In this document: positions 3,909 to 39,466 of the stretch, piece after piece
Layout of the letters: every line of letters begins with the position of its first letter
How positions within the stretch are numbered: the stretch's first letter is position 1
Source: Elusimicrobiota bacterium
GTDB lineage: Bacteria > Elusimicrobiota > Elusimicrobia > UBA1565 > JACRDR01
NCBI GenBank assembly: GCA_016207565.1
Contig: JACQPK010000267.1
Span: 1-58,428 of the forward strand
Length of the DNA: 58,428 bases
Direction: 5' to 3'
The notes under the pieces: model-generated
Told to the model about the DNA's origin: nothing
The model's input: only the letters and a program-made list of their open reading frames with translations
The model's database searches: none
Position numbers and translations under genes: made by a program

Positions 3909-3959
3909 GACCCTAATTAATGCCCGCGGAGCCTCGCGCGCATTGGGTTTGCCTCCGCC

Positions 3960-3987
3960 TTGACTTTCCGCCCCCCAGGGCTATCCT
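3960..3987 (+). promoter_or_regulatory. Promoter candidate TTGACT-16-TATCCT, 8 nt before ATG 3996
   Basis: Near-consensus -35 and a TAnnnT -10. Predicted +1 is about 3994. Confidence 0.4.
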
Positions 3988-3995
3988 AGGGTAGG

Positions 3996-5111
3996 ATGCC
4001 GTCCCATCAGCGCACGGCGGCGATACTGTTCCTAGCCGCCTTGCTCGTCGGCGGCGCAGCCGTCGTCGGCCTGCGATCTCGCTGGTCCGGAAGCTCGCCC
4101 TCCCGGCGCCTCAAGACCGCAAACCCCTCCGCCCGCCCCGGCGCCCTCGCGCCCGCCCCGCTCGACGAGGAAGAAGAACGATCGGGCCTCGAGCTGGTCT
4201 CGGGGTCCGGCATCCGCTTCGGCGGGCCGGCCCGGTACGGCTCGTCGGCTTCAGGCATCGCGACGGTCGACGCGGGGGGCGGCCCCTCAGGGATCGCGTC
4301 CCGGCTGCGCGAGGCGCTCGAGCTCGGGCCGATGGAAGGGCTCGGCGAGCCGGAATACGACCCCTCGGCGGCGACCGAGGCGCCGGCGGAGCCCTCGGCC
4401 GAGGCGGCGACGGACGAGAAGGGAAGACGCGGTCCCAATTCGCGAGATCACGGCTCCGCCTCGGCGGGCCGTTCGGGCACGTCTGCCGCCGGAGAGACGG
4501 CCGGTCCCATGGGCACCGCCGGCACGCCGGCGGAACCGTCGCCGGCCGGCATGCTCCTCTCGATGTTCAAGCCGGCGGACCGGACCCGGCTGTTGACCCA
4601 TCTCGAGGGGGGCAAGGGCTTCGTCTCCGCGTGCAAGGCCAGCGGCCTCGCCGCGCAGTGCATGTCGGCCGGGCAGGCGTGCACCCGCCAGGCCGCGTGC
4701 GGCCGCTGGCTCAACGGCCAGCTCACTGCGCACGCGCGCGCCAAAGCGGGCGACGCGGAACTCGCCGGAGGCGACCAGGTGGGCGGCGTGGGGGCCCAGG
4801 TGGGCGGATTCGCCTCCGGATACGGCGCCGGCGAAACGAACGCCGCCGGCCGGGAAAAGGGGCTCGGCTCCGGCGGCGGACGCGGTTCGGGCGCGGCGCG
4901 ATCGGCCGTGAAGACGGCGAAAAAGGACGACACGCCCGAGGAAGCCCTGACGCCCTCGCCCCGCCCCACCCCGACGCCGACCCGCATCACGATCCGGCTG
5001 CCGTTCGGCGGGACCCTGACGATCCCGACGTTCACGCCCACGCCGACCCCGCGGCCGGCCCCCATCACCACCCCCGTCGAAAAGGGGAATCCGAAGTACT
5101 TTCTGAAGTAA
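3996..5111 (+). CDS. Membrane-anchored low-complexity protein with C-x8-C-x6-C-x5-C motif and Pro/Thr-rich tail
   Basis: 371 aa. N-terminal TM segment AAILFLAALLVGGAAVVGL. Cys motif CKASGLAAQCMSAGQACTRQAAC is encoded at 4632-4700. It is the first gene of a long + strand operon. Confidence 0.6.
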   Translation: MPSHQRTAAILFLAALLVGGAAVVGLRSRWSGSSPSRRLKTANPSARPGALAPAPLDEEEERSGLELVSGSGIRFGGPARYGSSASGIATVDAGGGPSGIASRLREALELGPMEGLGEPEYDPSAATEAPAEPSAEAATDEKGRRGPNSRDHGSASAGRSGTSAAGETAGPMGTAGTPAEPSPAGMLLSMFKPADRTRLLTHLEGGKGFVSACKASGLAAQCMSAGQACTRQAACGRWLNGQLTAHARAKAGDAELAGGDQVGGVGAQVGGFASGYGAGETNAAGREKGLGSGGGRGSGAARSAVKTAKKDDTPEEALTPSPRPTPTPTRITIRLPFGGTLTIPTFTPTPTPRPAPITTPVEKGNPKYFLK

Positions 5112-5129: not shown

Positions 5130-6692
5130 ATGGCCCAGAGGCCCGAGAGCCTCGAGCTCCTGCTCGAGGTGTCGCTGCTTTTGTCCTCGAAGCTCGACGT
5201 TTCCGAGCTGCTGGAGACCATCATGCAGCTCTCCTCCCGCGTCGTCAACGCGGAGACCGCCAGCCTCCTCCTCGTCGATCCGAAGACCAACGAGCTCTAC
5301 TTCGACGTCGCGCTCGGCCTGGCCCCGGAGCTGACCAAGATCCGCCTTCCGATGGGCAAAGGCATCGCGGGCGCGTGCGCGCTCGAAGGCAAAACGCTGG
5401 TCATCAACGACGTCGCCTCGGACCCCCGCTGGAGCTCGACGATGGACAAGCAGTCGGGCTTCAAGACCCGCTCCATCCTCGCGGCCCCGATGAAGTTCGC
5501 GGGCCGCACGATCGGCGTGGTGGAGGCGATCAACCACATCGGCGGCGGCTTCTCGCCGGAGGACATCCGCATCTTCGAGGCCTTCGCCTCCCAGGCGGCC
5601 GTCGCCGTCGAGAACGCGCGCCTGTTCGCCTCCGTCCAAGAGGAGAAGACGCGCCTCGACACCGTCTTCACCCAGATGACCGACGGGGCCCTCTTGACCG
5701 ACGAGGCGGGCCGGGTCACGCTCGCCAACGGGGCGGCGGTACGCCATCTCGGCGGGCGGCTCGAGGCGGGCGCGGAGCTCGAGGTCGTGTTCGAGGGCCT
5801 CGACTTCAATCCTCCCGTGCGGGAGCTGCTGACGTCGCCCGAGGTGCACGCGTCGTTCGAGGCCGTGCGCGAGCTCCCCAAGCCCCTCGTCGTGGCGGGC
5901 ACCGCGAGCATCGTCCGCTTCGAGCGCATCGGCCGCACGCCGCCCTCGATGGGACGGCTCTTCATCTTCCGGGACGTCACCGCCCAGCGCCACGAGGACG
6001 CGCTCAAGCGGAGCTTCCTGTCGCTCATCTCCCACAAGCTCAAGACGCCGCTGGCCTCGATCACCGGCTACTCGCAGCTCCTGATGGACGACCTCTCCGC
6101 GAACACCGCGCCCCAGATGATGGAGCGCTCCGTGCGGGCGATCCTCACCCAAGGCAATAAGCTCGCGTCCTTGGTCGAGAAGCTCCTCAACTTCACCACG
6201 CTGGAGGACCTCAAGGAGCGCGACGTCGAGCGCGGCTGCGTCCCGGTCGACGGCGTGCTGGCCGACGCCACCGAAGCTCTCAAGGGCTGGATGGACGAGA
6301 AGAAGGCCGCGCTCACGGTCAACTCCGCCCCCGGGCTGTCGGTCTCGGGCGACCGGCTGCTCCTGCGCGACGTCTTCAAGAACCTGATCGAGAACGGCGT
6401 GAAGTTCTCCGAGACGGGGCGCCCCGTCGAGGTATGGGCCGAGGCGGTCGGACCGGAGGTGGCCGTCCACGTCCGCGACCAGGGCCCCGGCATCCCCCCC
6501 GAGGAGCAGGCGAAGGTCTTCGACAAGTTCTACCAGATCGAGGCGAGCTTCACCGGCCAGGTCGACGGCTGGGGCCTCGGCCTGCCGTTCGTGAAGAAGG
6601 TCGTCGAGACGCACGGCGGCCGCGTGCGGCTCGAGAGCTCGCTCGGCAAGGGCACGACCGTGACGTTGTTCTTGCCCTCGGCGGCGCCATGA
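5130..6692 (+). CDS. GAF domain-containing sensor histidine kinase
   Basis: N-terminal GAF-like region. H-box FLSLISHKLKTPLASITGYSQLL. HATPase C-terminus GWGLGLPFVKKVVETHGGRVRLESSLGKGTTVTLFLP. Confidence 0.9.
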   Translation: MAQRPESLELLLEVSLLLSSKLDVSELLETIMQLSSRVVNAETASLLLVDPKTNELYFDVALGLAPELTKIRLPMGKGIAGACALEGKTLVINDVASDPRWSSTMDKQSGFKTRSILAAPMKFAGRTIGVVEAINHIGGGFSPEDIRIFEAFASQAAVAVENARLFASVQEEKTRLDTVFTQMTDGALLTDEAGRVTLANGAAVRHLGGRLEAGAELEVVFEGLDFNPPVRELLTSPEVHASFEAVRELPKPLVVAGTASIVRFERIGRTPPSMGRLFIFRDVTAQRHEDALKRSFLSLISHKLKTPLASITGYSQLLMDDLSANTAPQMMERSVRAILTQGNKLASLVEKLLNFTTLEDLKERDVERGCVPVDGVLADATEALKGWMDEKKAALTVNSAPGLSVSGDRLLLRDVFKNLIENGVKFSETGRPVEVWAEAVGPEVAVHVRDQGPGIPPEEQAKVFDKFYQIEASFTGQVDGWGLGLPFVKKVVETHGGRVRLESSLGKGTTVTLFLPSAAP

Positions 6693-8083
6693 GCAAGCTC
6701 TCGGCGGTGAAACCCGAGGACTGGGCGCCCGTCCTGGCATTCGAGGAGTACGCGGAGGCCTATCTCGAGGAGTCGTGGGGAGCGAGCCTCCACTTCGAGG
6801 ACTCCCGTACGGAGGAGATTGCCTCCGGCGCCGACGTGGGCGCCGGGCTGCGCTACCTGCGGCGCTCCGAAGGTCCGTCCGGCTTCGAGACGCGGCACGG
6901 AAGCCTCAACGCGATCGACCCCGCCGCCGCGATGGCGCTCGCGCGCCGGCTCGCGGGCTCATCCTTGAACGGACGCTCGAAGGGCCTATCGGCCCTGACG
7001 CGCTGCGCTCAGCCGGTCACGATCCGCCCGGAGGACATCGGCCTCGAGCGCAAGATCGAGCTCCTCGTCTCCGTCGACCGCGCGCTGCGCGAGGAGTTCC
7101 CCCTCCTCCGGCAGGTCAGCCTGACCTACGCGGAGCGCCGCAAGGCGTTCATGGTGCTCAATTCCGAAGGGCACGCCCGCTACGAGGAGCGCGTCGCGAC
7201 GCTCTTCGTCGCCGACGTCACGGCCGAGCGAGACGGCATCCTCCAGACGGGGCACGAGGTGGTGGGCGGGGCCAAGGGCTTCGAGCTCCTCCTCGAGCAC
7301 GATCCGCTGCGCCTCGCGCGCGGCGCCGCGGCGCGAGCGGTCGCCAAGCTTTCCGCGCCTCCCGCCAAAGCCGGCGAGATGCCCGTGGTGCTCGCCGCCT
7401 CCGCGGGCGGGACCTTCGTCCACGAGGCGATCGGCCACTCGCTCGAGGCCGACCACGTCCAGGAGGGCACCTCCCCGGCGTACGTCGGCAAGGTCGGGCA
7501 GGTCGTCGCGCCCGAAAACCTCAGCATCGTCGACGACCCGACGCTGCCTTTCGCGCGCGGCTCCTTCGCGTTCGACGACGAGGGCACCCTCGCGCGTCCG
7601 ACCGCGGTCGTCAAAGACGGCGTCCTGCGGGAGTACCTGTACGACCGCATCACGGCGGCGAAGGACGGCAAGGCGCCCAACGGCCACGGCCGGCGGGAGT
7701 CCTACCGCCACCGGCCGATCCCGCGGATGTCGAACCTCTACATCGCGCCGGGCAAGGACGATCCCGCGCGGATCCTCTCCGAGCTGGACCGCGGGCTCCT
7801 CGTGACGCGCATGGGCGGCGGGCAGGTCAACACCGCGACCGGCGAGTTCGTGTTCGAGGTGGACGAGGGCTTCTGGGTCGAGGGCGGCGTCATCAAGCAC
7901 CAGGTCCGCGACGCCAACCTCTTGGGCATCGGCCCGGAGACGCTCAAGTCCATCGATCGCTTGGGCTGGGACATCGGCTGGGGCATCGGGACCTGCGGCA
8001 AGGACGGACAAGGGGTCCCCGTATCCGACGGACAGCCGACGCTGCGGATCCCCCGAATGCTTGTGGGCGGCAGGCATGATTAG
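6689..8083 (+). CDS. tldD: TldD family metalloprotease
   Basis: HEAIGH zinc motif and a conserved C-terminal GTCGKDGQGVPV region. The start ATG overlaps the kinase stop (ATGA at 6689-6692). Confidence 0.88.
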   Translation: MSKLSAVKPEDWAPVLAFEEYAEAYLEESWGASLHFEDSRTEEIASGADVGAGLRYLRRSEGPSGFETRHGSLNAIDPAAAMALARRLAGSSLNGRSKGLSALTRCAQPVTIRPEDIGLERKIELLVSVDRALREEFPLLRQVSLTYAERRKAFMVLNSEGHARYEERVATLFVADVTAERDGILQTGHEVVGGAKGFELLLEHDPLRLARGAAARAVAKLSAPPAKAGEMPVVLAASAGGTFVHEAIGHSLEADHVQEGTSPAYVGKVGQVVAPENLSIVDDPTLPFARGSFAFDDEGTLARPTAVVKDGVLREYLYDRITAAKDGKAPNGHGRRESYRHRPIPRMSNLYIAPGKDDPARILSELDRGLLVTRMGGGQVNTATGEFVFEVDEGFWVEGGVIKHQVRDANLLGIGPETLKSIDRLGWDIGWGIGTCGKDGQGVPVSDGQPTLRIPRMLVGGRHD

Positions 8084-23954: not shown

Positions 23955-24491
23955 TCACTCGCCCAGCTTCTTATTCCCCGTCGGCGGCCCCTTCTTCGGC
24001 TTCTGCGGCGACATGCCGGGGATGGCCGCGAAGAGTCTAGGCGCGTCCAGGAAGTCGGCGGCACCACGAAAGCGCTCCAGGTAGGCGGCGAATTCGCGTT
24101 CGGTCTCGGGATAGCGCGTCAGACCGGTCCCGCTGAGGAGACTCAACTCGAGCCGGCCTCCCTCCACGCGATATTCGGCGGGCCACCAGCGACCCTCGGG
24201 AGATCCGTGGACATACCCGATCCACAATAGGTCGAACTCCTGCGCCGAGCTCCGGATGCGCGTCCGGACGGCATACAACCGTTTGGTCTGCCCGTCCTGG
24301 TACGTCGAGTCGATCTGATACGCGGACCCCTTTCGCGAGCTCACTTCGTGCCGGTCGCCATTCTCGTCCCATACGCCCACAAGGGAACCGTCGATCGGCT
24401 GCAACTGCCCAACGACGACGCTCGAGCCGCTCTTGATGCAGGCGGACGAGAGCGCGACAAGGACCAACAGCAGGGGAAGGTTTCTATTCAT
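23955..24491 (-). CDS. Lipoprotein, hypothetical
   Basis: MNRNLPLLLVLVALSSAC has a lipobox. CATCCT lies 6 nt before the ATG. Confidence 0.6.
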   Translation of the reverse strand: MNRNLPLLLVLVALSSACIKSGSSVVVGQLQPIDGSLVGVWDENGDRHEVSSRKGSAYQIDSTYQDGQTKRLYAVRTRIRSSAQEFDLLWIGYVHGSPEGRWWPAEYRVEGGRLELSLLSGTGLTRYPETEREFAAYLERFRGAADFLDAPRLFAAIPGMSPQKPKKGPPTGNKKLGE

Positions 24492-24710
24492 GCCCGCAGG
24501 ATGGCCCAATCTCCCCCGAAAGGCACACAACGTTTTCGCCAAGAAAAAGAGTTAATCCCCGCATCACGAATTCCGCCCCCCCTCCGGGCCCATAAGTTCG
24601 CTGAAAACCATCGCCCGCCGCGACCGCCAAACCTCCGGCTCCCTACTACAAGGATTAGGGCTCCTGCGTCGCGAGGCGCGATGCGCGCGGTGCGCGTGTC
24701 CACGGGGGCC

Positions 24711-26033
24711 TCAATCCGCGGAACAGAGCGGAACGTTGGAGCCGAGCATGCACACGGTGCCCTCACTGCAGGACCCTCCGATCGACTGGTTCGACCGGCA
24801 GGGCGGCGGCATCGGGCTGAACGGCGCGACGTAGTCGTGATGCAGCTTGCCGGCCGGCCCGCAGGTCAGGGCGTTGCAGTTGCGCTTGACCACATCGAGG
24901 TAACCGTCCACCTTTTTGCCCGTGGTCGCGTCGGCGAGGATGAAGTGGGCCTTGATCTTGTTGTCGCCCCACATGCCCGCCTCGTAAGGGATCGTCCCTA
25001 TCCATTTGCCGTCCTTGTATTCCCAATGGTGGTTCCCCCAGTCCGCGCCGCCGTTGCGGCGCTTGAACGGCATGATGTAGTTCGTTCCGATCGACGCGCA
25101 GTAGCCGGAGGGACTCGTCCACTCGCCGCGGCGGTGGTCGAGGACCTCGTAGCAGACCGTCGTCTTCTCGGCTGCCAAGCCCGTGATCTCGTAGCGGATG
25201 GTCCGCGGATCGTTCATGTCGAACTCCGCCCGAGCCGGGGTGATGGCCGGCTCCCCGGCGGCCGCGATAGCGGCGTGCGATCCGATCCCTCCCGCGTGGG
25301 TGGAACCGGACGCCGACTTGAGGTCGTTCGAGGCCGCGCCCGAGGAGCCCAGCAGCCCCGCGGCGGCCGTCGTCGGGCCGGGAGTCCCCGCGGTCGTGGC
25401 GGCGGGCGCGGGCGCGCCGTGCTGCGAAGTCCCGGCGGCCGCGCTGCTGAACTTCGGCGCCCGCGTGTTGAGTCGGCTCAAGCGGTTGATCTGGGTCGGG
25501 ACGGCGCGCAACACGCCGACGGAGGACATCCGCTCGAGCCGGCGCTTCCCGGCCGCCGCCTTGGCCGCCTGGGGGATGCGCGCGGTCCTCGCGGCGAGGG
25601 CCGGCATCGCGAAGAAGGCGGTGGTCGCGGCGCCGAAGCCGGACCGGGCCGAGGCGGCCGAGCCCTGGCGCGCCGCGGCGATCGGCGCCGGCGCGTCGCG
25701 CAGCGCGGCCTCGGAACCGGCGTTCAGGCCCTCGATCGGGATCGGCGGCGGCTCGCCGATGCGGCCGGCGGGAGGCAACGGCCCCGCGGGCGAGCGGAGC
25801 GGAGCGAAGCCCGGCCCTTTCGCCGCGCGCGGCGCGGCAGGCTCGCGCGTTAACGCGGGCAGGCGGTCTCCGTCGAACTCGTAGGACGACAACGACGACC
25901 CGGCCGGAGCGGGTTGCGGCCAACGCACTCGGTCGGCGAGGTCGGGCGGCGGAGCGCCGATCGAGAGGACGACCCCCAACGCCGCCGCCGCGACGGCGGC
26001 GGCGCCCGAACGCCCGACCCATTCTTGGTTCAT
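24711..26033 (-). CDS. Membrane-anchored surface protein: shared N-module + type I Cys-rich C-terminal domain (geneC)
   Basis: TM segment AAAVAAAALGVVLSIG and a low-complexity linker with GFGAATTAFFA...GKRRLERMSSVGVLRAVPT. The C-terminal domain is paralogous to that of the 28718-29821 gene. Confidence 0.65.
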   Translation of the reverse strand: MNQEWVGRSGAAAVAAAALGVVLSIGAPPPDLADRVRWPQPAPAGSSLSSYEFDGDRLPALTREPAAPRAAKGPGFAPLRSPAGPLPPAGRIGEPPPIPIEGLNAGSEAALRDAPAPIAAARQGSAASARSGFGAATTAFFAMPALAARTARIPQAAKAAAGKRRLERMSSVGVLRAVPTQINRLSRLNTRAPKFSSAAAGTSQHGAPAPAATTAGTPGPTTAAAGLLGSSGAASNDLKSASGSTHAGGIGSHAAIAAAGEPAITPARAEFDMNDPRTIRYEITGLAAEKTTVCYEVLDHRRGEWTSPSGYCASIGTNYIMPFKRRNGGADWGNHHWEYKDGKWIGTIPYEAGMWGDNKIKAHFILADATTGKKVDGYLDVVKRNCNALTCGPAGKLHHDYVAPFSPMPPPCRSNQSIGGSCSEGTVCMLGSNVPLCSAD

Positions 26034-26043
26034 ATGCCCCCCT

Positions 26044-27546
26044 TCAACGGACGCCGACGGCTTTCTGCAGGACGCCGATCCTTCGGTCCAGCTCGCGGGC
26101 GATCTCCGCGTAGAGATGGCGCGCGTTGTCGGCGAGATCGGTGCGCCCGTGCGCGATCACGGGCGTGCGGCCGGCCTCCATGCGCTCGCGCGCCTCGCGG
26201 AGGCGGCGCTTGAACTCGCCCTGGCCCTCCGGCCAGTCCGCGCGCCAAAACGCGGTGCCGCCCCCCGTGCACGTATTCGAGGTCGATTGGGGGCCTTTGT
26301 CCATCTCGGCCTGGTATCCCATATAGTCGAGCTTCTTGAGCTCGGTCCACGCGCGGGCGTCGCCCGCGTTGCACGCGCTCAAGAGTTGAAACCAGTCCTG
26401 ATAGACCGGGTTCTGGCATCCAGGCGTCACGAGCAGCACGTTCGGGTCGATGACCGTGCGGCGGCAATCGGTCCAGAGGAAGAACTCGTTGGAGCCGGCA
26501 TACGGGAGGTACTCGTAGACGCGGTCCATCGGCGTGCGCTTCCAATCGGCCAGGAACACATCCCCGGCCTCGAAGCGCGCGTTCCGCGGGAGGCGAGCCG
26601 GCTCGGCGAGCCAGTCCGTCATGCGGATTCGAGCCTCGAGGAGTTGCCGCAAGGCGATGACCGCCAACGTCTCGGTGGGGCAGTCGCCGGAGGCAGGGCA
26701 CGTCCGCTGCGGCAGGGCCGCGAGGATCCGGTAATACTCGGCGAGCAGTTGCGCGTCCGACGGGAGCGCCCCCCCGGCCGGCGTCGAGCCCCTGGGCAAG
26801 GACCCCGCGGCGCCGGCGGAAACGGCTCCGCGTCCCCGAGTGACGGTATCCGACGAGCGTGCGTCTTCGCCCGAACGGGCCGCCGAAGCGCTCGAGCGTC
26901 CGGCCGCGCTCGCATCGGAGGAGCCCGCAGCGCCCGCGCCCAAGGACTTCGCCCCGGCGCTGGACCCGGCAAGAGCGGCCGAGCGGGCCGAGACCGCCGA
27001 AAGCCCGCCCAACGCGGGGAGCAGCGTCGGCGCGGTGCGCGCGACGCCGATCGAAGCGAGGCGCTTGAGCCGCTTCTTGGCGGCGGGCCGAGCGGGCTGG
27101 ACGACGGCGGCGGCCCGGGGCGCCTCGGCGGACACGGCGAGAAACGCGGAGCTCGCGCCGCCGAATCCGGCGTGCGCGACGACGCCGCCTTGGGCGGGAA
27201 CGGCGGCCGGGACGTCGCGGAGCGACTCGTCCACGTAGGCGGCGCCGGCCTGAGGCGGCGCGCTCCGGCCGCCGGCGCGGGCGACGGACGGGAACGTGGG
27301 TGAAAACGGCGTCCCGGCGACGGAGAAGGAGCCGGGCGCGGCCGACGGCGCCGGCGCCTCTGCGATCAGCTCGGGCAGGCGGTCGAACGGCTCGGGCTCC
27401 TCCGCGGGATCGACGGCGGCTCGCGCGGGCCACAACACCGGCTCCGCGCGCTCCTCGGCGGGCCGCTCCATCGAGAGCGCGACCCACAGGGCCGAGCCTC
27501 CGAGCGCGAGTCCCCAACCGGCGAGCCAGGTCTTCGTCATGATCAT
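26044..27546 (-). CDS. Membrane-anchored surface protein: shared N-module + type II Cys-rich C-terminal domain (geneB)
   Basis: Start MIMTKTWLAGWGLALGGSALWVAL overlaps the geneA stop (ATGA). Contains GFGGASSAFLA...AKKRLKRLASIGVARTAPT, then an unrelated ~250-aa domain with 8 Cys. The rest of the 953-aa ORF is a read-through artefact. Confidence 0.65.
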   Translation of the reverse strand: MIMTKTWLAGWGLALGGSALWVALSMERPAEERAEPVLWPARAAVDPAEEPEPFDRLPELIAEAPAPSAAPGSFSVAGTPFSPTFPSVARAGGRSAPPQAGAAYVDESLRDVPAAVPAQGGVVAHAGFGGASSAFLAVSAEAPRAAAVVQPARPAAKKRLKRLASIGVARTAPTLLPALGGLSAVSARSAALAGSSAGAKSLGAGAAGSSDASAAGRSSASAARSGEDARSSDTVTRGRGAVSAGAAGSLPRGSTPAGGALPSDAQLLAEYYRILAALPQRTCPASGDCPTETLAVIALRQLLEARIRMTDWLAEPARLPRNARFEAGDVFLADWKRTPMDRVYEYLPYAGSNEFFLWTDCRRTVIDPNVLLVTPGCQNPVYQDWFQLLSACNAGDARAWTELKKLDYMGYQAEMDKGPQSTSNTCTGGGTAFWRADWPEGQGEFKRRLREARERMEAGRTPVIAHGRTDLADNARHLYAEIARELDRRIGVLQKAVGVR

Positions 27547-28553
27547 CGCCCCGTGTAGCGGCGCCGGCAGGCCTCGTCCGCATTGCAGCGCCGCATGGCT
27601 TCCATGCACGCCGGGGTGACGTTCGCGCCCCGGCAGGCCTCGAGTCCGGTGACGCCGTTCTCCGCGCCGGTCTCGAGGACGCGCAGCAACTGGCGGCGCG
27701 ACTCGTCGTCCATGCGGCTCAAGAGCGCGGAGCTCTCCAGCCCCTCGACCTCTTGCGACTCTCCCGCGTCCTTCACCCTCGCCAGCTTCCAGTCGATGCC
27801 GCGAGCCTCCTGTCCTAGATCGCTTCGGCCGCGGACCTCCTCGTCGCGCAGGCCGTCGCCGGCGTTCTCTCCCGCCGCGCGGCGCGGACCGGCGCCGTAC
27901 GCGCTCGGCGCGTCCCGCAGATCCGTCGGCCGCTCGAGCGACGGGTTCGACGCGAGAAGGCGCCACGCGTTGCCGCTGTCGGAGCGGAATAGCCTCGCCT
28001 CGGCGGCCGCGCCCCGGACGACCGTCGCCGGGCGCGTCGCCGCGGCCCGCGGATACAACGACCGGCCGGACGCCGCGGACATGCCGGCGAGGGCCGAGGA
28101 GCGCTCTTGCGAGCGGGCCGGGCCCTGCCACCGCGCGCGGCCTTTCAGGGAGCCGGAGGCGTCCCACTCCATCGCCTTTCCTTCGTCCCACGCCGCGCCG
28201 GGAGCCGAGCGCGCCGCGGTCGGCTGCGCCTCCGCCGCCGCGCGCGAGGCGCCTAGCGCCGCCAACGAGGAACCGTTGCGCGGGCCGCCGCGCCGCCGGG
28301 CCGCGCCGGCCGCCGCCAGCGGCTCGCCGGCCGCGGTCCAGGCGGCGGCCGGACGCGCCGCGAAAAGCGGGCGGGGCGCCTCGAGCCTGCGGCCGACCGA
28401 GAACCGAGCGCCGTCCGCATCGGTCGTCCATAAGGCGAAGACCGCGCCGCTGGCCCCGCCTCCCAGCGAGAGGAGCGCCGCCAGGATGAGGAGCCGCCGA
28501 TCGGAACCGTCGGGCGGCACCGTCCTGCGCACCTGGATCATCGGCTCGTTCAT
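27543..28553 (-). CDS. Membrane-anchored low-complexity protein ending in C-x8-C-x6-C-x5-C (geneA)
   Basis: Start taken at MNEPMIQVRR...RLLILAALLSLGGGASGAVFALW. Cys motif CRGANVTPACMEAMRRCNADEAC is encoded at 27567-27635. Confidence 0.6.
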   Translation of the reverse strand: MNEPMIQVRRTVPPDGSDRRLLILAALLSLGGGASGAVFALWTTDADGARFSVGRRLEAPRPLFAARPAAAWTAAGEPLAAAGAARRRGGPRNGSSLAALGASRAAAEAQPTAARSAPGAAWDEGKAMEWDASGSLKGRARWQGPARSQERSSALAGMSAASGRSLYPRAAATRPATVVRGAAAEARLFRSDSGNAWRLLASNPSLERPTDLRDAPSAYGAGPRRAAGENAGDGLRDEEVRGRSDLGQEARGIDWKLARVKDAGESQEVEGLESSALLSRMDDESRRQLLRVLETGAENGVTGLEACRGANVTPACMEAMRRCNADEACRRRYTGR

Positions 28554-28559
28554 ACCGGC

Positions 28560-28588
28560 AGGATGCGCCGATCCCGAAGACCCCTCCA
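28560..28588 (-). promoter_or_regulatory. Promoter candidate TGGAGG-17-CATCCT, 6 nt before ATG 28553
   Basis: Read on the minus strand. It has the same TGGAG -35 box and spacing as the three upstream modules at 31270, 32861 and 38281. Confidence 0.4.
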
Positions 28589-28682
28589 CGAAAAAGCCGT
28601 TGACACCGGAATCTGTCGTAAAAACCGGAGCTTTTACGCCGGAAACCGTATTCGCACAAAATTCCTTCAGAGGCTCTCCGCC

Positions 28683-28711
28683 TTGCATTCCCACGCCGCG
28701 GACCGCATACT
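28683..28711 (+). promoter_or_regulatory. Promoter candidate TTGCAT-17-CATACT, 6 nt before ATG 28718
   Basis: Hexamers and spacing read directly. No Shine-Dalgarno is present. Confidence 0.4.
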
Positions 28712-28717
28712 TTCGCG

Positions 28718-29821
28718 ATGGCGCACGCCGCTTCGAAGCTCGACCTAAAAACCCTCGGCCTGCTCGCCGTCGTGGTGCTCCTGAGCATGCTCGCGGGGAC
28801 CGGGACGGTGCGCCTATTCCTCAAAGGGGGCGGGACCTCGAAGCCGAGCGCCGTAGACGTCACGGTCGCCCCCGAACCACCCGAGAAGAAGAGCGTCTTC
28901 GCCAAAGACGAGCCCGCCGGGGAGCCGGCGCCCCAAGCTCACGCCGAGGTGAAGGTGCCGGTGCTCCCGCTGCCGCCGACCCTGCCGCCCAAGCGCCGGA
29001 GGAAAATGCCGCCGCAGCCCGCTCCCGAGACCCCGGAGCCGCCCCAGATCGCGCCCGCGAACTTCTTCAACTACGGGATCGGGGAAGGGGTCGAGAAGTC
29101 GGGCGCGCGGTTGGACGTCCCCGCGGCCCCGGAGCGTCCGCGTCGCGAGCTTCAGCGCGTCCCGTCGATCGGCCAAGCCCGCCCGCGCAACGTCACGGGC
29201 GCCAAGCCCCCTTCCGTGCCTCGGCCGGAGGGAAGCGAGTTCAAATCCGCGAAGGCGTCCGGGGCCGCGCTCAAGGCGCATCTCAGCCGGATGTTCGGAG
29301 AGCCGGACGGGGCCCTGAGGGTGCCGCTGTCCAAGTTTACCACCGACACGCCCGGCGACGGCGAAGGGCGGACCGGCGAAAGCGGTCCGGCCCGAGGCAC
29401 GCCGGCGGGCGGGATCGACCCGCGGCTGCGGCGCATCAACAACGCCACGATCACCGACGAGGACGCGCAGAACCCCGCGATCGAGCCCCGCCACGCGACG
29501 TTCGACATGGCCGCGCCGCGGACGCTCCAGTACCGAGTGACCGACATCCCGAAAGAGCGCACCGTCGTCTGCTACGAGGTGCTCGCGCACCCCTGCTGCC
29601 CGGAGTGCGTCGGCCCCGGCAATCAATGCGAGAGCTCGGCGAACTACTCCTCGTTCAACGGGAACGCCGACTGGAGATACGAGGGCGGCGCCTGGCTCGG
29701 AACGTTGGTGTACGTCCCGGCGGCGTACGGCTGCGAGGGCATCCAGGTCCGCTTCGTCTTCGCCGACAAGCGGACCGGCAAACACGCCGGCGCCGGCATG
29801 AACGTCGTCAACGGCTACTGA
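28718..29821 (+). CDS. Membrane-anchored surface protein: diverged N-module + type I Cys-rich C-terminal domain
   Basis: TM segment LGLLAVVVLLSMLAG and the motif RPRRELQRVPSIGQARP. The C-terminal region ATFDMAAPRTLQYRVTDIPKERTVVCYEVLAH... aligns with geneC AEFDMNDPRTIRYEITGLAAEKTTVCYEVLDH... Confidence 0.65.
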   Translation: MAHAASKLDLKTLGLLAVVVLLSMLAGTGTVRLFLKGGGTSKPSAVDVTVAPEPPEKKSVFAKDEPAGEPAPQAHAEVKVPVLPLPPTLPPKRRRKMPPQPAPETPEPPQIAPANFFNYGIGEGVEKSGARLDVPAAPERPRRELQRVPSIGQARPRNVTGAKPPSVPRPEGSEFKSAKASGAALKAHLSRMFGEPDGALRVPLSKFTTDTPGDGEGRTGESGPARGTPAGGIDPRLRRINNATITDEDAQNPAIEPRHATFDMAAPRTLQYRVTDIPKERTVVCYEVLAHPCCPECVGPGNQCESSANYSSFNGNADWRYEGGAWLGTLVYVPAAYGCEGIQVRFVFADKRTGKHAGAGMNVVNGY

Positions 29822-31284
29822 TGCGGCTGACGACGAAGATCACGCTGCTGCAAACGGGTTTCGCCGCCGTCGTGCTGCTCGCGACGCTGCTTCCCTTGGT
29901 CGTTTCCGAACGGCGCCACGTGCGCGAGCTCGAGGAGAAGCGCCAGGCCGCGCAGGTGGAGCAGCTCGCCCGCGCCTGCGGCGAGGCGTTCAAGAGCCAA
30001 GACGAGGCCGCCGCGCTCGGCTATCTCAAGACGCTCGTGCTGGTCTCGCCGCCCGGCTCGATCAGCTACGGCGCCTTCCTCGACGCCGAGGGCCGGACGT
30101 GGCTCCACACCGAGTTCCTCCACGGCGGCCGCGCCTCGAAGGGGAAGCGCGCGGCGGACCCGCGCGTAGACGCGGCGCTCGCCTCGCCCGAAGGCGGGCG
30201 CTCGGGGAACCTCATCTGGGCCCCGGTATATTTCACCGGACCCGCCGGCCGCGAACGCCGCGGCACCGCGGTCATCGCCTACGACCCGGCCGCGGCCTCG
30301 CAAGCCCTCGGCGCGCTCCAACGCGACTCGCTCTCGAGGGTCGCGCAGGTAGCGTTGCCGGGCCTGGGCCTCGGGCTCCTGCTTGCGTTCGTGCTCGGCC
30401 GCGCGCTGGCGGAACCGATCCAGCGCTTGGCCTTCGGGACGCGCCGCGTCGGCGAAGGGAGGCTCGACACGCGGATCCCCGACGAGGGCTCCGACGAGCT
30501 CGGCGACCTGGCGCGGGACTTCAACGCGATGGCCGCCAAGCTCAACGAGCTCGACGAGCTCAAAGACAGCTTCCTAGCGCAGATCACGCACGACCTGCGC
30601 AACCCGCTTACGGCGATCATCGCGCACGTGAACGTGCTCGGCATGGGAATCCACGGACCCGTGAACGAGAAGCAGAAGAAGAACCTGGACCTCGTCCAAG
30701 AGAGCTCGCTTTACCTCAACGAGCTGATCGGCGACATCCTCGACCTGACCAAGCTCGAGGCGGGCAAGATGGAGTTCGCGCCGAAACCGGTGGACGCCCA
30801 CGCCGCGGCCCGCGCCGTACTCGACCTCAACTCCGCGCGGGCCGCGGAGTACGGCGTCGCGCTCGAGTGCGCCGTGCCCGAGGGCGCCTCCGTCACGGCC
30901 GACCCCGAAGGCCTAAAGCGCGTCCTCATCAACCTCGTCTCCAACGCGCTGAAGTTCACGCCCAAAGGCGGCAAGGTGACGGTCGGCCTCGCCTCGGTCA
31001 ACGGCTCGGACCGGATCTCGGTGTCCGACACCGGCATCGGGATCCCGGAGGACAAGCTCGGCCTCCTATTTAGGAAGTTCTCCCAGGTGGCCGAGACCAA
31101 GAACAAGGTGCGAGAGGCGGCCGGCACCGGCCTCGGGCTCGTCATCTGCAAGCAGATCGTGGAGGCCCACGGCGGCACGATCGGCGTCGAGAGCGTCTAC
31201 CGGAAGGGCACGACGTTCTTCTTCCACCTTCCCAAGGCCCCCCGGCCGGAAGACCCCGCCGTTCCCTCCCTCAAAGACGGCTGA
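29821..31284 (+). CDS. HAMP domain-containing sensor histidine kinase
   Basis: The start shares one nt with the previous stop (TGATG). Two TM segments flank a ~150-aa periplasmic region. Has HAMP, an H-box FLAQITHDLRNPLTAI, and HATPase GTGLGLVICKQIVEAHGGTIGVES. Confidence 0.9.
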   Translation: MRLTTKITLLQTGFAAVVLLATLLPLVVSERRHVRELEEKRQAAQVEQLARACGEAFKSQDEAAALGYLKTLVLVSPPGSISYGAFLDAEGRTWLHTEFLHGGRASKGKRAADPRVDAALASPEGGRSGNLIWAPVYFTGPAGRERRGTAVIAYDPAAASQALGALQRDSLSRVAQVALPGLGLGLLLAFVLGRALAEPIQRLAFGTRRVGEGRLDTRIPDEGSDELGDLARDFNAMAAKLNELDELKDSFLAQITHDLRNPLTAIIAHVNVLGMGIHGPVNEKQKKNLDLVQESSLYLNELIGDILDLTKLEAGKMEFAPKPVDAHAAARAVLDLNSARAAEYGVALECAVPEGASVTADPEGLKRVLINLVSNALKFTPKGGKVTVGLASVNGSDRISVSDTGIGIPEDKLGLLFRKFSQVAETKNKVREAAGTGLGLVICKQIVEAHGGTIGVESVYRKGTTFFFHLPKAPRPEDPAVPSLKDG

Positions 31285-31388: not shown

Positions 31389-31403
31389 GTGAGGAGGCCG
31401 GAC

Positions 31404-32726
31404 ATGAAGAACCGATTCTGGATCGCGCTCGCGAGCTTGGCTCTCGGTGCGTTCGCCGAGGCCCGGGAGGCGCTGGCGCCGAGGGCGCAGGTCGAGTTCG
31501 AGCTGGGCGTCGTGCGCCACGAGTTGCGCAAGAAGAGCTCCGGGCCCCGCTGGAGCGCCGGGATCACCTCGATGGCCCAACTGTCGCTCGACGCCCGCCG
31601 CGCGCGGCTCGGCGGAGGCGGCGGGGCGCCTTCGGGAACCCTCCCCAAGCTCTCGGCCCTCTCCGTCCCCGGAGCCGGCGCGAGCGCGGTCGACTGGCGG
31701 GACCGCGACGGCCGGGACTTCGTGACGCCGGTCAAGAACCAAGGCAAGTGCGCCAGCTGCTGGGCGTTCTCGACCACCGCGGCGCTGGAGTCCTACATCC
31801 TGAGGCGCTCGAGCGTCTCCTCCCAGATCGACCTCTCCGAGCAGATCGTGGTTTCCTGCAGCGGCGCCGGGAACTGCGTCGAGGGCGGCTTCCAGGACTA
31901 CGCGGCGGAGTATCTCCAGAGGATCGGAACGGCCGACGAGTCGCTCGCTCCCTACCAGGCGGCCGACGCGCCGTGCACGCTCCTCGGGGGCTCTTGGACG
32001 AACGAGACGCTGCGGGCGGGGCAGTGGTTCTCGGTCGACGGCTCCGTCGACGGCCTGCGCTCCGCGCTGGCCGACCACGGGCCGGTCGTCGTCTGGTTCC
32101 GGGTCTACGCCGACTTCTTCTTCTATCAGTCCGGCGTCTACGAGCACGTCGCGGGCGACTGGATGGGCAACCACTCGGTCGTCCTGGTCGGCTACGACGA
32201 CACCCAGCGCGCCTTCATCGCCAAGAACAGCTGGGGGACCCGGTGGGGCGACCGAGGCTATTTCCTGATCTCCTACTCGGCCGTGTCGTCGGAGGTCGAG
32301 CTCGGACGCTGGTCGCTCGCGTTCGCGCCGAAGGAGCCGTCCCCGGTCCAGGTCCGCGTCGCCCAGCCGAGGCCGAACGCGATCGTCGCGCCGGACGCCG
32401 CCGCGACGGGAAGCGTGACGTTCGAAGGCGACGAGAACTTCCGCGTGACCGCGTTGGAGTTCACGGTCGACGGACGGAGGCTTCCGCCGGTCGAGCCCGC
32501 TCAGGCGTGGTCGGTCGCGCTTTCGACGGAGAGCCTCGCCGACGGCCCCCACACGCTGACGGTCACGGCGGCCGACAACGCCGGGCACACCCGCACGGTG
32601 TCGGTTCCGTTCACGGTCGGGGAGACGCTCGTCGACGACTTCGACTTCCGCCACCCCGGTCCGGACACGGACCTGGAGGACCGCCGCCGCCGATTCCGGC
32701 GCCGGCCCTTCACGCTGCGGCCGTGA
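31404..32726 (+). CDS. Papain-like (C1A) cysteine peptidase, secreted, with C-terminal Ig-like domain
   Basis: GAGGAGG is 6 nt upstream of the start. Signal peptide MKNRFWIALASLALGAFA. Catalytic contexts QGKCASCWAFS (Cys), GNHSVVLVGYD (His) and KNSWG (Asn). An alternative GTG start lies at 31389. Confidence 0.85.
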   Translation: MKNRFWIALASLALGAFAEAREALAPRAQVEFELGVVRHELRKKSSGPRWSAGITSMAQLSLDARRARLGGGGGAPSGTLPKLSALSVPGAGASAVDWRDRDGRDFVTPVKNQGKCASCWAFSTTAALESYILRRSSVSSQIDLSEQIVVSCSGAGNCVEGGFQDYAAEYLQRIGTADESLAPYQAADAPCTLLGGSWTNETLRAGQWFSVDGSVDGLRSALADHGPVVVWFRVYADFFFYQSGVYEHVAGDWMGNHSVVLVGYDDTQRAFIAKNSWGTRWGDRGYFLISYSAVSSEVELGRWSLAFAPKEPSPVQVRVAQPRPNAIVAPDAAATGSVTFEGDENFRVTALEFTVDGRRLPPVEPAQAWSVALSTESLADGPHTLTVTAADNAGHTRTVSVPFTVGETLVDDFDFRHPGPDTDLEDRRRRFRRRPFTLRP

Positions 32727-32974: not shown

Positions 32975-33208
32975 ATGAACGCTACAGCAGAGAGCCTGAG
33001 GCCGATCACGATACTCGCCGCCGGGCTCAGCGCCCAGGCAACGCCGCAGCCGGCAACAACTCTGACCAAGGCGATCGGAGCGTCGAGTGCCCACGTCGCC
33101 TTGGCGACCGGGCCGGCCGGCGTCTTGGCGACCGGCGCCGAGCCCGGGGTCCCCGACCGCCGCAAACGGCTGGCTGCAGGTGTTGGCGCCCGATCGGTGA
33201 TCCCATGA
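32975..33208 (+). CDS. 77-aa stand-alone copy of the shared N-module (signal peptide + GASSAHVA...RRKRLAAGVGARSVIP)
   Basis: Signal-like ITILAAGLSAQA. The C-terminal half aligns with geneB GGASSAFLAV...AKKRLKRLASIGVARTAPT. ATGA overlap with the next gene. Confidence 0.45.
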   Translation: MNATAESLRPITILAAGLSAQATPQPATTLTKAIGASSAHVALATGPAGVLATGAEPGVPDRRKRLAAGVGARSVIP

Positions 33209-34248
33209 AACGCTTCTTGCTGCCGGCCGTCGCGAGCCTGCTCGTCCTTCTCGGACCGGGAGCCGAGGCGGGCCCGCGCAAGCGGAAGCTCGCGCCGCTC
33301 ACCTCGTGGCCCTCCGCGGCGCAGACCGCGAAGAGCCTGTCCGGCGTCTTTACCGCGGCGCCCGGCGACGCCGGCCTCCAGTCGTCCGAGGCCGGCACGC
33401 CTTCGGCGCAAGACGGACGGGGCGGCCTGGCCTTCGGCCGCGCGACGGGCGTCGAGGCTTCGGTGCTCCGGTCGGGCCTGCCGTCGGGAGCGCACGCGTC
33501 CGCGTCGACGCAGCATGCGTCCTCGACGAAGACCGCCGCGGGGGCCTCGGAGCCCGAGCCCGCCTCGGCGTCGTGCCGCGGCGAGGACTGGGTCGATCTC
33601 TCATGCTCGGTGCCGCCCCAGCCGGAGGTGCAGGCGCTCACGGCCGAGGAGCGGGAGGAGTGCGAGGCCGAGGCCCGAGCGGCGCCCTCCTACCTCGGCG
33701 CGGAGTGCAACCCGGCGGCATGGTGGCTGCGGCGGCACCATTATGAGACTCCCGCGTACTTGGACGCCCAGGCGGGCTGCCGCGAGCGCGTCCACAACGT
33801 CTGGTGGACGCGGCGCACCTTCGATAGCTGTCCGGAGACGTTCGGCTCCGGGCAGCGCCGGATGATCGAGGGACCCGCGGGCGCCCTCGTCACATTCAAG
33901 GTGCAGACCCAGAAGTTCCAGCCCGGGATCCACCACGTCAACGAGTGGGTCGCCGCCGAGCGCCCGATAGCGCAGCCGCGTTCGGTGAAGGCGTGGATCT
34001 CGGCCGAGCCCGCCGGGGAAGCCGTGGCCGGTCTCGGATGCAGCAGGGAAGGCGTGTTCATCTTCAGCGTCGACCTCAGGTATCTGCTTTACGACGCGGG
34101 CGGGCCCGTGCCGGCGGACACGCAGCGCGCCGTGGACACGTACCAGTGGTGCCTGCTCAAGGCCGAGCGCGTATACTACATCAACTTCGAGATCACCGAG
34201 TGCGACGCGGCGGTCTGCGGAGTCGTCAGCGAGCTGTACCTGCACTAG
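33205..34248 (+). CDS. Secreted Cys-rich protein (paralog of 38396-39466)
   Basis: Signal peptide MKRFLLPAVASLLVLLGPGAEA. PRKRKL...GLQSSEAGTP aligns with PKRKL...GLQSTQAGTP. The C-terminal ...QWCLLKAERVYYINFEITEC aligns with ...NLCILEPGGHYYLNVAGRC. Confidence 0.65.
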   Translation: MKRFLLPAVASLLVLLGPGAEAGPRKRKLAPLTSWPSAAQTAKSLSGVFTAAPGDAGLQSSEAGTPSAQDGRGGLAFGRATGVEASVLRSGLPSGAHASASTQHASSTKTAAGASEPEPASASCRGEDWVDLSCSVPPQPEVQALTAEEREECEAEARAAPSYLGAECNPAAWWLRRHHYETPAYLDAQAGCRERVHNVWWTRRTFDSCPETFGSGQRRMIEGPAGALVTFKVQTQKFQPGIHHVNEWVAAERPIAQPRSVKAWISAEPAGEAVAGLGCSREGVFIFSVDLRYLLYDAGGPVPADTQRAVDTYQWCLLKAERVYYINFEITECDAAVCGVVSELYLH

Positions 34249-38280: not shown

Positions 38281-38395
38281 CTCAATAAGCGCTGAACCCC
38301 ACAGGTGGAGACGCCAAAATCGTTGAATTCATTACATTTTCACGTTGAGCGCTGTTTGGTTGGAGTCCCCGAAGTGCGGGGGCTAGACTATCCGC
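38281..38395 (+). promoter_or_regulatory. Conserved upstream module, copy C (-35 TGGAGT 38361-38366, -10 TAGACT 38384-38389, ATG 38396)
   Basis: Colinear with copies A and B. The -10 is followed by exactly 6 nt and then ATG, with no SD. Confidence 0.55.
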
Positions 38396-39466
38396 ATGAA
38401 GAACATCCTGCTTCTCACGGCCCTCGCGACCCTCACGCTCGCCGCGCCGGCCGCGGCCGCCCAAAAGCCCTTCGCCCGGACCACTCCGAAGCGCAAGCTC
38501 TCACGCCTACAGGCCCCGCCTTCGAACCGGCCGGGCTTCCTGAATTTCTGGGCCGCCTTCACCGCCGGCTCCGCCCCGCAGACCGGCCTCCAGTCGACGC
38601 AGGCCGGCACTCCGGAGAGCGGCCGGTTCATCGGCGGCCCGGCGCTCGGCGCCGCCACGGCGACCCGATACGGCGGCATCGGCGACACTGCGAGCTCCGG
38701 CAGTCCGTCGACGTCCACGCACGCCGGGGTGATTTCGAATACCTTCCCTACATCCCTGTCATTCGACCAGCGGAGCACCGAACTCCGGCCGTACTCGAGC
38801 GCGCCCGGACCGCGGCGGCTCTCGCGCGACTATGTGTCCAACCCGCCGCTGATCTGCCCCTACGGCAGCCCGGCGGGCGAGCCGGGCACCGGCCTCTGCC
38901 GCTACCGAGGCCTGGTGATGGCCGAGGCCTACCCACCCCCCACTCCGGAGGGTTTCGTGGAGAGGGAGATCTACGCGCTGGAGCATTGGCCCGGGCAGGG
39001 CTGGGGGCATCGGATGCTGCGGATGGGAGCCGGCGCCAAGTGGGCGGTGCGCTTCAAGGCCGAAACGACGAACGCCGTCCAAGTCGGCGGCCTGTACGCC
39101 CTTCCCCTCCGCAGCCCGATGGCAATGTTCGTCTCAGTCTCGCGCAGGCCCGGAGATTTCGACGTGGCGCCGGGCTGCCTGCGCACGCCGGCGAGTCTGG
39201 CGAACGACGACGGCGGCGGCGCGCCCAACGTCGACGCGGTCATCGAGCTGCGCTTCACCCGGACGCCCGACGCGGGCCAGCGCCAACAGGCGGAGCTCGG
39301 GAACCTCTGCATCCTCGAGCCCGGCGGCCACTACTACCTCAACGTCGCCGGGCGCTGCGCGCCGGAGCTCGACCCGGACAATCTCTACCGCGAGGCCCGA
39401 GACACGTGGGGCTGCCCCGTCGCGCTATCGAATATAAACCGCTACGTCAACGCCAGCATGCCTTGA
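38396..39466 (+). CDS. Secreted Cys-rich protein (paralog of 33205-34248)
   Basis: Signal peptide MKNILLLTALATLTLAAPAAAA. See the paralog alignment blocks listed for 33205-34248. Confidence 0.65.
   Translation: MKNILLLTALATLTLAAPAAAAQKPFARTTPKRKLSRLQAPPSNRPGFLNFWAAFTAGSAPQTGLQSTQAGTPESGRFIGGPALGAATATRYGGIGDTASSGSPSTSTHAGVISNTFPTSLSFDQRSTELRPYSSAPGPRRLSRDYVSNPPLICPYGSPAGEPGTGLCRYRGLVMAEAYPPPTPEGFVEREIYALEHWPGQGWGHRMLRMGAGAKWAVRFKAETTNAVQVGGLYALPLRSPMAMFVSVSRRPGDFDVAPGCLRTPASLANDDGGGAPNVDAVIELRFTRTPDAGQRQQAELGNLCILEPGGHYYLNVAGRCAPELDPDNLYREARDTWGCPVALSNINRYVNASMP

Follow-up and report, generated by a model that had tools for sequence, protein, structure and literature searches.

Why do two neighbouring genes of an uncultured bacterium encode proteins that begin alike and end in unrelated domains? 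The question is raised by a locus on contig JACQPK010000267.1, a stretch of 58,428 nucleotides (hereafter the window) with approximately 70% G+C from a metagenome-assembled, uncultured groundwater Elusimicrobia bacterium (assembly GCA_016207565.1). The locus consists of geneA, geneB and geneC on the reverse strand and the divergently transcribed geneD. A first-pass annotation, made from the sequence, had likened the shared N-terminus and swapped C-terminal domains of geneB and geneC to the architecture of polymorphic effector or adhesin families. Our analysis points instead to a set of narrow-clade envelope proteins of groundwater Elusimicrobia, each with a membrane anchor and a predicted disordered stalk that ends in a small head with Cys residues, serving envelope-tethered binding, a reading to which we give about an even chance of being right. 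The genes and their parts are as follows.

24711-26033, reverse strand: geneC, 440 residues, comprising an anchor, a predicted disordered stalk, a beta-domain and a six-Cys tail
25953-26009, reverse strand: geneC hydrophobic segment (residues 9-27), a signal anchor or signal peptide
25245-25952, reverse strand: geneC stalk (residues 28-263), the part of the N-terminal module held in common with geneB
24885-25244, reverse strand: geneC beta-domain (residues 264-383)
24714-24884, reverse strand: geneC C-terminal tail (residues 384-440), 57 residues with six Cys
26044-27546, reverse strand: geneB, 500 residues, with an anchor and stalk homologous to those of geneC and then an unrelated head
26785-27546, reverse strand: geneB N-terminal module (residues 1-254)
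26047-26784, reverse strand: geneB head (residues 255-500), 246 residues with six Cys
27543-28553, reverse strand: geneA, 336 residues from MNEPM, with a transmembrane anchor (residues 21-39), a predicted disordered region and a C-terminal domain
27555-27644, reverse strand: geneA C-terminal domain, helical, four Cys
28718-29821, forward strand: geneD, 367 residues, divergent from geneA
28754-28810, forward strand: geneD transmembrane anchor
29480-29812, forward strand: geneD beta-domain

The N-terminal 230-250 residues of geneB and geneC (the N-module) are identical at 80 of 233 aligned positions (34%; BLASTP with compositional adjustment, E=7e-14). With the transmembrane segment excluded, their Smith-Waterman score was 269, compared with 80 ± 11.5 for global shuffles (z=16), and z was still 13.6 and 10.5 when residues were shuffled within windows of 20 and 10 residues, respectively. 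As the last of these keeps local composition, the similarity is not merely compositional, and the shared N-terminus of about 230 residues described in the first-pass annotation withstood the statistical control that had been named for it beforehand. The heads were likewise found to be unrelated, as described there, their Smith-Waterman score of 30 being no different from that of shuffled sequences (30 ± 4.5, z about 0). Two artefacts could in principle mimic such a pattern, Ala/Pro-rich composition or an assembly chimera in geneB, and both have some basis in the low complexity of the stalks (62-63% A/G/S/P/T) and in the metagenomic origin of the window. We find either scarcely credible given the window shuffles and the composition-adjusted alignment, the retention of the stalk motifs in orthologues from two other assemblies, a G+C content at third codon positions (GC3) of 0.76-0.96 throughout geneB, and tight operon junctions on either side of it. 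Over their full lengths all four genes have a GC3 of 0.88-0.90, resembling nearby housekeeping genes, and by this uniformity the four open reading frames look like real genes.

The N-module is predicted to be an anchor followed by an intrinsically disordered stalk bearing approximately six short linear motifs, rather than a folded domain, based on model confidence, composition and the confinement of conservation to motifs. Single-sequence AlphaFold2 (AF2) modelling gave low confidence, the mean predicted local distance difference test score (pLDDT) being 44.8 for geneC and 52.6 for the geneB head; in geneC, residues 1-261 have pLDDT below 50 almost throughout and no secondary structure. Ala, Gly, Ser, Pro and Thr make up 63% of the geneC stalk and 62% of that of geneB, and 49-63% over some 200-240 residues in the four proteins. 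When geneB, geneC, two C orthologues and a fragment (P0020) were aligned, the stalks were conserved only in short blocks between variable, Ala/Pro-rich spacers, with the consensus AERVRWP; DRLP[AE]L; GRxGEPPPI; [LM]RD[AV]; G[FL]GxxSxAF[FL]; and [KN][KR]RLx[RK][LM]xS[IV]GVxRxxPT. The corresponding motifs in geneC and geneB, and two motifs in the Pro-rich stalk of geneD, lie at the following positions.

25917-25937, reverse strand: geneC, ADRVRWP
25851-25874, reverse strand: geneC, DGDRLPAL
25740-25766, reverse strand: geneC, GRIGEPPPI
25686-25706, reverse strand: geneC, ALRDAPA
25608-25640, reverse strand: geneC, GFGAATTAFFA
25494-25547, reverse strand: geneC, KRRLERMSSVGVLRAVPT
27427-27447, reverse strand: geneB, AEPVLWP
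27367-27387, reverse strand: geneB, FDRLPEL
27205-27225, reverse strand: geneB, SLRDVPA
27136-27168, reverse strand: geneB, GFGGASSAFLA
27025-27078, reverse strand: geneB, KKRLKRLASIGVARTAPT
29051-29080, forward strand: geneD, APANFFNYGI
29141-29182, forward strand: geneD, RRELQRVPSIGQAR

Each of the four proteins has one strongly hydrophobic 19-mer, and it is N-terminal. In geneC, residues 9-27 have the highest Kyte-Doolittle mean (1.91) among the 19-mers at the first 60 start positions, and no 19-mer starting past residue 80 exceeds 1.6. The stalks contain no Cys at all; the 24 Cys of the four proteins are located in the heads, with six in geneB, eight in geneC, six in geneD and four in geneA, which corrects the earlier counts of 8 for geneB and 10 for geneC.

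The geneC head is shared with geneD. Their C-terminal domains align with E=4e-21 (BLASTP) over both stretches that the first-pass annotation had quoted in proposing this recurrence, and the alignment extends upstream into a KRRLERMSSVGV / RRELQRVPSIGQ motif. A HMMER profile built from geneC, the N-terminal part of geneB and geneD was run on 1.84 billion representative proteins (E<=1e-3), of which only 22 matched; hits outside the set carrying the N-module match the C/D head only, and the profile aligns along most of P0021, the positional orthologue of geneD. The domain (the beta-domain) is about 110 residues long, with C31, C49 and W74 invariant, several aromatic positions conserved and the signature VCxEVLAHP...C...N[FY]xxFxGNxDWxY..GxWxG...Y....WG..GI. 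The AF2 model of the geneC domain is all-beta, with 10 strands in residues 265-382 and block-mean pLDDT of approximately 50-80. Carriers with a named source belong to the Elusimicrobia or to the Patescibacteria (Candidatus Vampirococcus lugosii, Gracilibacteria and 'Patescibacteria group'). The domain occurs in two to three tandem copies in P0005, P0014 and P0022, and towards the C-terminal end of secreted proteins 450-900 residues long, one of which (P0017) also has PG_binding_1; three large secreted carriers have sub-threshold CarboxypepD_reg matches. Word-indexed searches had returned only the query itself for the full-length geneC protein and nothing for the isolated geneC and geneB heads. 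As the isolated geneC head thereby missed its own parent, whereas about 20 relatives emerged from exhaustive searching with HMMER, these nulls are weak.

No Pfam or NCBIfam model matches the beta-domain region in geneC, geneD or ten other carriers. Foldseek searches of the PDB returned only generic immunoglobulin-like (Ig-like), E-set and glycosidase-accessory sandwiches, with probability up to 0.99 (Ig-like), a best E of 3e-3 and a TM-score of at most about 0.5, and those of BFVD returned Ig-like viral membrane glycoproteins. The C/D head is probably an undescribed all-beta domain family that is Ig-like or carbohydrate-binding-module-like, judging by these models. It resembles described Ig-like, E-set and carbohydrate-binding-module-type domains (Big_1, CarboxypepD_reg, FN3-like RbmA, intimin D0) in being a predicted all-beta sandwich of about 110 residues found in tandem copies and terminally in large secreted proteins, beside CarboxypepD_reg-like and PG_binding_1 domains. 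It differs from them in having no Pfam or NCBIfam model, in its own two-Cys signature, and in being extremely rare and found, where sources are known, only in the Elusimicrobia and Patescibacteria. The architecture of the four proteins is of a known kind, and the C/D beta-domain family is new to description.

Two further observations concern this domain. The beta-domain profile (A4) gave a marginal match among PDB sequences to influenza N2 neuraminidase (E=0.0085, 18 bits), in which nearly the whole beta-domain aligned with residues of approximately 221-316 of crystallised N2 heads; Foldseek against viral models gave no support for neuraminidase, so the match is probably due to chance. P0017 (907 residues) is encoded with a 1032-residue neighbour and several small unannotated genes inside a ribosomal-protein operon, between L5 and S14, an arrangement seen on two Patescibacteria-like contigs (L006, 6001-8724; L007, 2768-5491).

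The six-Cys tail of geneC is kept in both C orthologues and weakly resembles a stretch inside P0016 (E=1e-5, the database searched being very small); a likeness to P0005 noticed by eye gave no match on testing. The low-confidence model of the geneB head (mean pLDDT 52.6) is largely helical; at that confidence its best Foldseek E of 0.67 is meaningless, and a scan of JGI metagenomes for its close relatives gave pattern matches, none of them confirmed. None of the four proteins matches a Pfam or NCBIfam family at E<=1 or fits a PDB family, PADLOC gave no matches, and PHROGs gave two insignificant ones (E=0.26 and E=0.056), in keeping with the earlier statement that no domain was recognisable. 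Motif inspection found no C-terminal sorting signal (LPXTG, PEP-CTERM or T9SS CTD) and NCBIfam no sorting-domain match; the C-termini of the four proteins (...PLCSAD, ...KAVGVR, ...RRYTGR and ...VVNGY) have no terminal hydrophobic segment.

The history of the locus can be read from two related contigs, L001 from a groundwater metagenome and L003 from the Elusimicrobia metagenome-assembled genome (MAG) GCA_016212845.1, the latter found by genome scan. The N-module was found only in geneB, geneC, the full-length C orthologue P0004 and the fragment P0020 in the exhaustive profile search, and additionally in L003; a scan of JGI metagenomes gave pattern matches and no confirmed relative. As in the window, PilT, a cNMP-binding protein, RsfS and ArgS adjoin the C orthologue in both contigs, the two C orthologues being 42% identical to geneC. 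In both, the A orthologue is followed after a 3-nucleotide gap by the C orthologue, with no geneB, and a divergent geneD orthologue is present in L001 as a cut gene (L001:1-717). We infer that the ancestral arrangement was D <-> A-C, with geneB either gained in the lineage of the window or lost in a line common to the other two. Identity is 32-37% between the geneB stalk and each of the three C stalks and 40-54% among the C stalks themselves, and there is no DNA-level repeat between geneB and geneC. This equidistance and the absence of a repeat show no trace of recent recombination and indicate that the duplication is either old or has evolved fast; geneB is best described from these comparisons as a lineage-specific paralogue rather than a recombining cassette.

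These data bear directly on the possibility of a polymorphic toxin/effector or variable adhesin cassette, in which recombination would join one conserved N-terminus for delivery to a choice of C-terminal effector domains. Adjacent genes with a shared N-terminal region and unrelated C-terminal domains are indeed what is seen in CdiA-CT, Rhs/YD, MafB and LXG systems, heads with no assigned function could conceivably include a novel toxin, and in two of the three genomes geneC has a small lipoprotein gene after it. Near-identity of the N-termini is typical of polymorphic toxin systems, a classification of which is said to have been given by Zhang and colleagues in 2012. Here, by contrast, the N-modules are only 34% identical and fade gradually into low-complexity sequence, with neither a VENN- or PxxxxDPxGL-type junction motif nor, as noted, a DNA repeat to demarcate an exchange. 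TPS/FHA, PAAR, RHS/YD, LXG, WXG100, MafB-N and other trafficking domains were absent (Pfam/NCBIfam at E<=1), as were known toxin and immunity domains (Pfam, NCBIfam and PADLOC). Nor did the analysis reveal any recognised toxin fold, immunity gene, array of orphan C-termini or dedicated secretion system, and the Pfam-scanned neighbours included no T5, T6 or T7 secretion, toxin or immunity genes. Moreover, geneB is followed by a 440-residue paralogue rather than a small immunity gene, only two head types occur on the N-module among the 1.84 billion representatives, and in the two syntenic relatives geneB is absent rather than replaced by an alternative. The polymorphic-effector analogy fails on four of the defining features tested and we regard it as very improbable; what stands of the earlier interpretation is the architecture, a shared N-module with unrelated heads and a paralogous head in geneD. 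An adhesin role is possible.

The envelope reading builds on the observed homologies, domain distribution and synteny, on the disorder prediction, and on an overlap of geneD with a kinase gene that is considered below. According to this reading, each of the four proteins would have one N-terminal anchor, from which a Cys-free disordered stalk of some 200-240 residues would present a small head beyond the cytoplasm. The topology would be N-in/C-out and would allow the heads to be disulfide-bonded there. The motifs of the geneB and geneC stalks would dock onto a common envelope partner, and the heads would supply specificity by binding a glycan, the wall or another ligand. GeneB would have arisen from an old or fast-evolving duplication of the stalk, joined to a new head, rather than from cassettes still being exchanged. 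It is plausible that the geneA-D proteins lie outside the cytoplasm, in the envelope or at the surface, because of their single N-terminal hydrophobic segment, the restriction of Cys to the heads and the presence of the beta-domain in secreted proteins of Patescibacteria.

Several points weigh against the envelope reading. The topology is deduced from hydrophobicity only, and the segment could be an anchor or a cleaved signal peptide; the call of disorder could partly reflect the use of single-sequence models lacking an alignment; and the binding function is a guess from the architecture and the conserved aromatic residues. For the beta-domain only a generic fold can be assigned, with Foldseek giving no match in the PDB at E<=0.001. 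The geneB head had no relative in the PDB sequence search, Pfam, NCBIfam, PADLOC or PHROG, and lay outside the profile used for the exhaustive search. A hidden Markov model (HMM) of the N-module did not detect geneA or geneD at E<0.1. GeneD has only the last, basic motif of the N-module and geneA an LRDAP motif recognised by eye, so treating the four proteins as one family depends on their architecture and these two motifs.

The layout of a short N-terminus, one transmembrane segment, a long low-complexity linker with motifs and a small globular C-terminal domain is also that of the FtsN/DedD/DamX SPOR proteins and of TonB and TolA, and the C-terminal domain of Escherichia coli FtsN is disulfide-bonded. 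The four proteins might accordingly be periplasm-spanning structural tethers, with an anchor, a linker carrying an activating motif and a small Cys-containing domain targeted to the wall or outer membrane. The peptidoglycan-binding domain in the beta-domain protein P0017 and the fixed chromosomal position of the D <-> A-C cassette beside argS in three genomes would suit such a role. However, no protein of the locus resembles SPOR (PF05036), TonB_C (PF03544), TolA or another family at Pfam E<=1, the heads being instead the new beta-domain, with its Foldseek likeness to Ig-like sandwiches, and the geneB head with no detectable relative. Division and Tol-Pal/Exb genes are also missing among the Pfam-scanned neighbours, and confinement to a few groundwater Elusimicrobia would be unusual for core envelope machinery. 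On balance we consider structural tethers rather improbable.

A sensor kinase gene directly follows geneD, and a second pair elsewhere in the window echoes this arrangement.

29821-31284, forward strand: sensor histidine kinase with HAMP, HisKA and HATPase_c (Pfam) and, by inspection, two transmembrane segments
3996-5111, forward strand: protein with an anchor, a long predicted disordered region and a small four-Cys motif (GFVSACKASGLAAQCMSAGQACTRQAACGRW)
5130-6692, forward strand: GAF-PAS-HisKA-HATPase kinase

The geneD stop codon TGA (29819-29821) shares one nucleotide with the kinase start codon ATG (29821-29823), from which the two genes are predicted to be translationally coupled. The protein encoded at 3996-5111 is weakly similar to the C-terminal domain of geneA (tblastn E=0.003; HMM E=2.4e-4 in a small local database), and its gene ends 18 nucleotides upstream of the second kinase. 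It is possible that the locus encodes co-sensors or accessory proteins of two-component signalling, whose heads capture a ligand and pass the signal to the neighbouring kinase through membrane or periplasmic contacts. Besides the one-nucleotide overlap and the second pair, with its weak geneA-domain paralogue, two contigs are consistent with this. L002, from the same MAG as L003, is syntenic with the window at 29-44 kb and holds the geneD orthologue P0021 clustered with two OmpR-type response regulators, and in L004 the Elusimicrobia beta-domain protein P0008 is encoded two genes after Response_reg and Trans_reg_C genes. Against this, the adjacency of geneD and kinase is not kept, L002 having no kinase after the D orthologue; geneA, geneB and geneC have no kinase neighbour; and the beta-domain proteins of the Patescibacteria have no two-component neighbours. 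Two-component genes are common, making chance proximity likely, and we consider a co-sensor role unlikely.

A bolder version combines these elements, and we hold it to be a long shot. Through its conserved short motifs, a modular docking stalk would connect disulfide-bonded sensor heads of different kinds to a single envelope machine, such as the geneA product or the neighbouring kinase. The lineage could then evolve receptors by acquiring new heads on a duplicated stalk, and the beta-domain, shared with episymbiotic Patescibacteria, would serve cell-cell or glycan recognition and would have passed between groundwater lineages.

If the envelope reading is true, the locus reveals an undescribed extracellular two-Cys domain family of about 110 residues, shared by groundwater Elusimicrobia and Patescibacteria and suitable for deposition as a domain model. 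It would also provide a small-scale case of a new envelope protein made from a duplicated, disordered, motif-bearing stalk and a new head, and suggest a possible accessory protein of a sensor kinase. Current views are not overturned; the main effect is to shrink the 'hypothetical protein' space of uncultured phyla, and to correct a tempting but unsupported analogy with toxin cassettes. A literature search on groundwater Elusimicrobia MAGs found nothing on these proteins.

The coordinates of the operon warrant some detail. The geneC protein is identical to NCBI HY553_11490, and geneB and geneD correspond to HY553_11495 and HY553_11505; the geneB start in NCBI (P0003) is at 27540, two codons after 27546. 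An exact look-up of the geneB and geneC proteins with the start codons of the first-pass annotation returned no record. The ATGA overlap of geneA and geneB and the 10-nucleotide gap between geneB and geneC, both described earlier, are present, the gap being preceded by GAAGGGGGG. For geneA the likeliest start is 28553 (MNEPMIQVRR) or else a conserved in-frame GTG 39 nucleotides upstream, at 28592, rather than 28694, given its orthologues and the conserved intergenic region of 164-165 nucleotides. Two further features flank the genes.

28554-28717, no strand: intergenic region between the divergent geneA and geneD, with blocks kept across three genomes
23955-24494, reverse strand: small predicted lipoprotein gene downstream of geneC, with the N-terminus MNRNLPLLLVLVALSSAC and a lipobox-like end

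The intergenic blocks AGTATG, TGAAGGAAT, TTTTCGTGGAG and CATCCT are invariant in the window, L001 (718-882) and L003 (40-241), although the encoded proteins of those genomes are only about 40% identical. The blocks could serve as shared sites of regulation, or the GTGGAG block could instead mark the in-frame GTG at 28592 as an upstream start of geneA. A promoter and terminator scan gave nothing beyond shuffled expectation, and Rfam had no matches across 23-31 kb of the window. The lipoprotein gene has a homologue (26% identity) downstream of the C orthologue in L003 (2675-3205) and is missing in L001, where argS comes directly.

Beyond the kinase, the window contains a further group of genes for secreted or Cys-rich proteins.

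31389-32726, forward strand: papain-family (Peptidase_C1) cysteine protease with a C-terminal Ig-like domain, between the kinase and a Cys-rich protein
33205-34248, forward strand: secreted protein, Ala/Gly/Ser-rich N-terminal part, Cys-rich C-terminal domain, no Pfam match
38387-39466, forward strand: secreted protein of the same description

Both the Peptidase_C1 gene and the kinase are absent from the syntenic stretch of L002. The C-terminal region of P0008 had been likened by eye to the other Cys-rich proteins of the window, and BLASTP gave no match. The two secreted Cys-rich proteins have homologues in L002, at 5775-6866 (42% identity) and 3949-4941 (26% identity), where OmpR-type response regulators are also found. 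In the window they are likewise sited among OmpR-type response regulators, and they have in common the C-terminal motif C.L.PG..YY.N.

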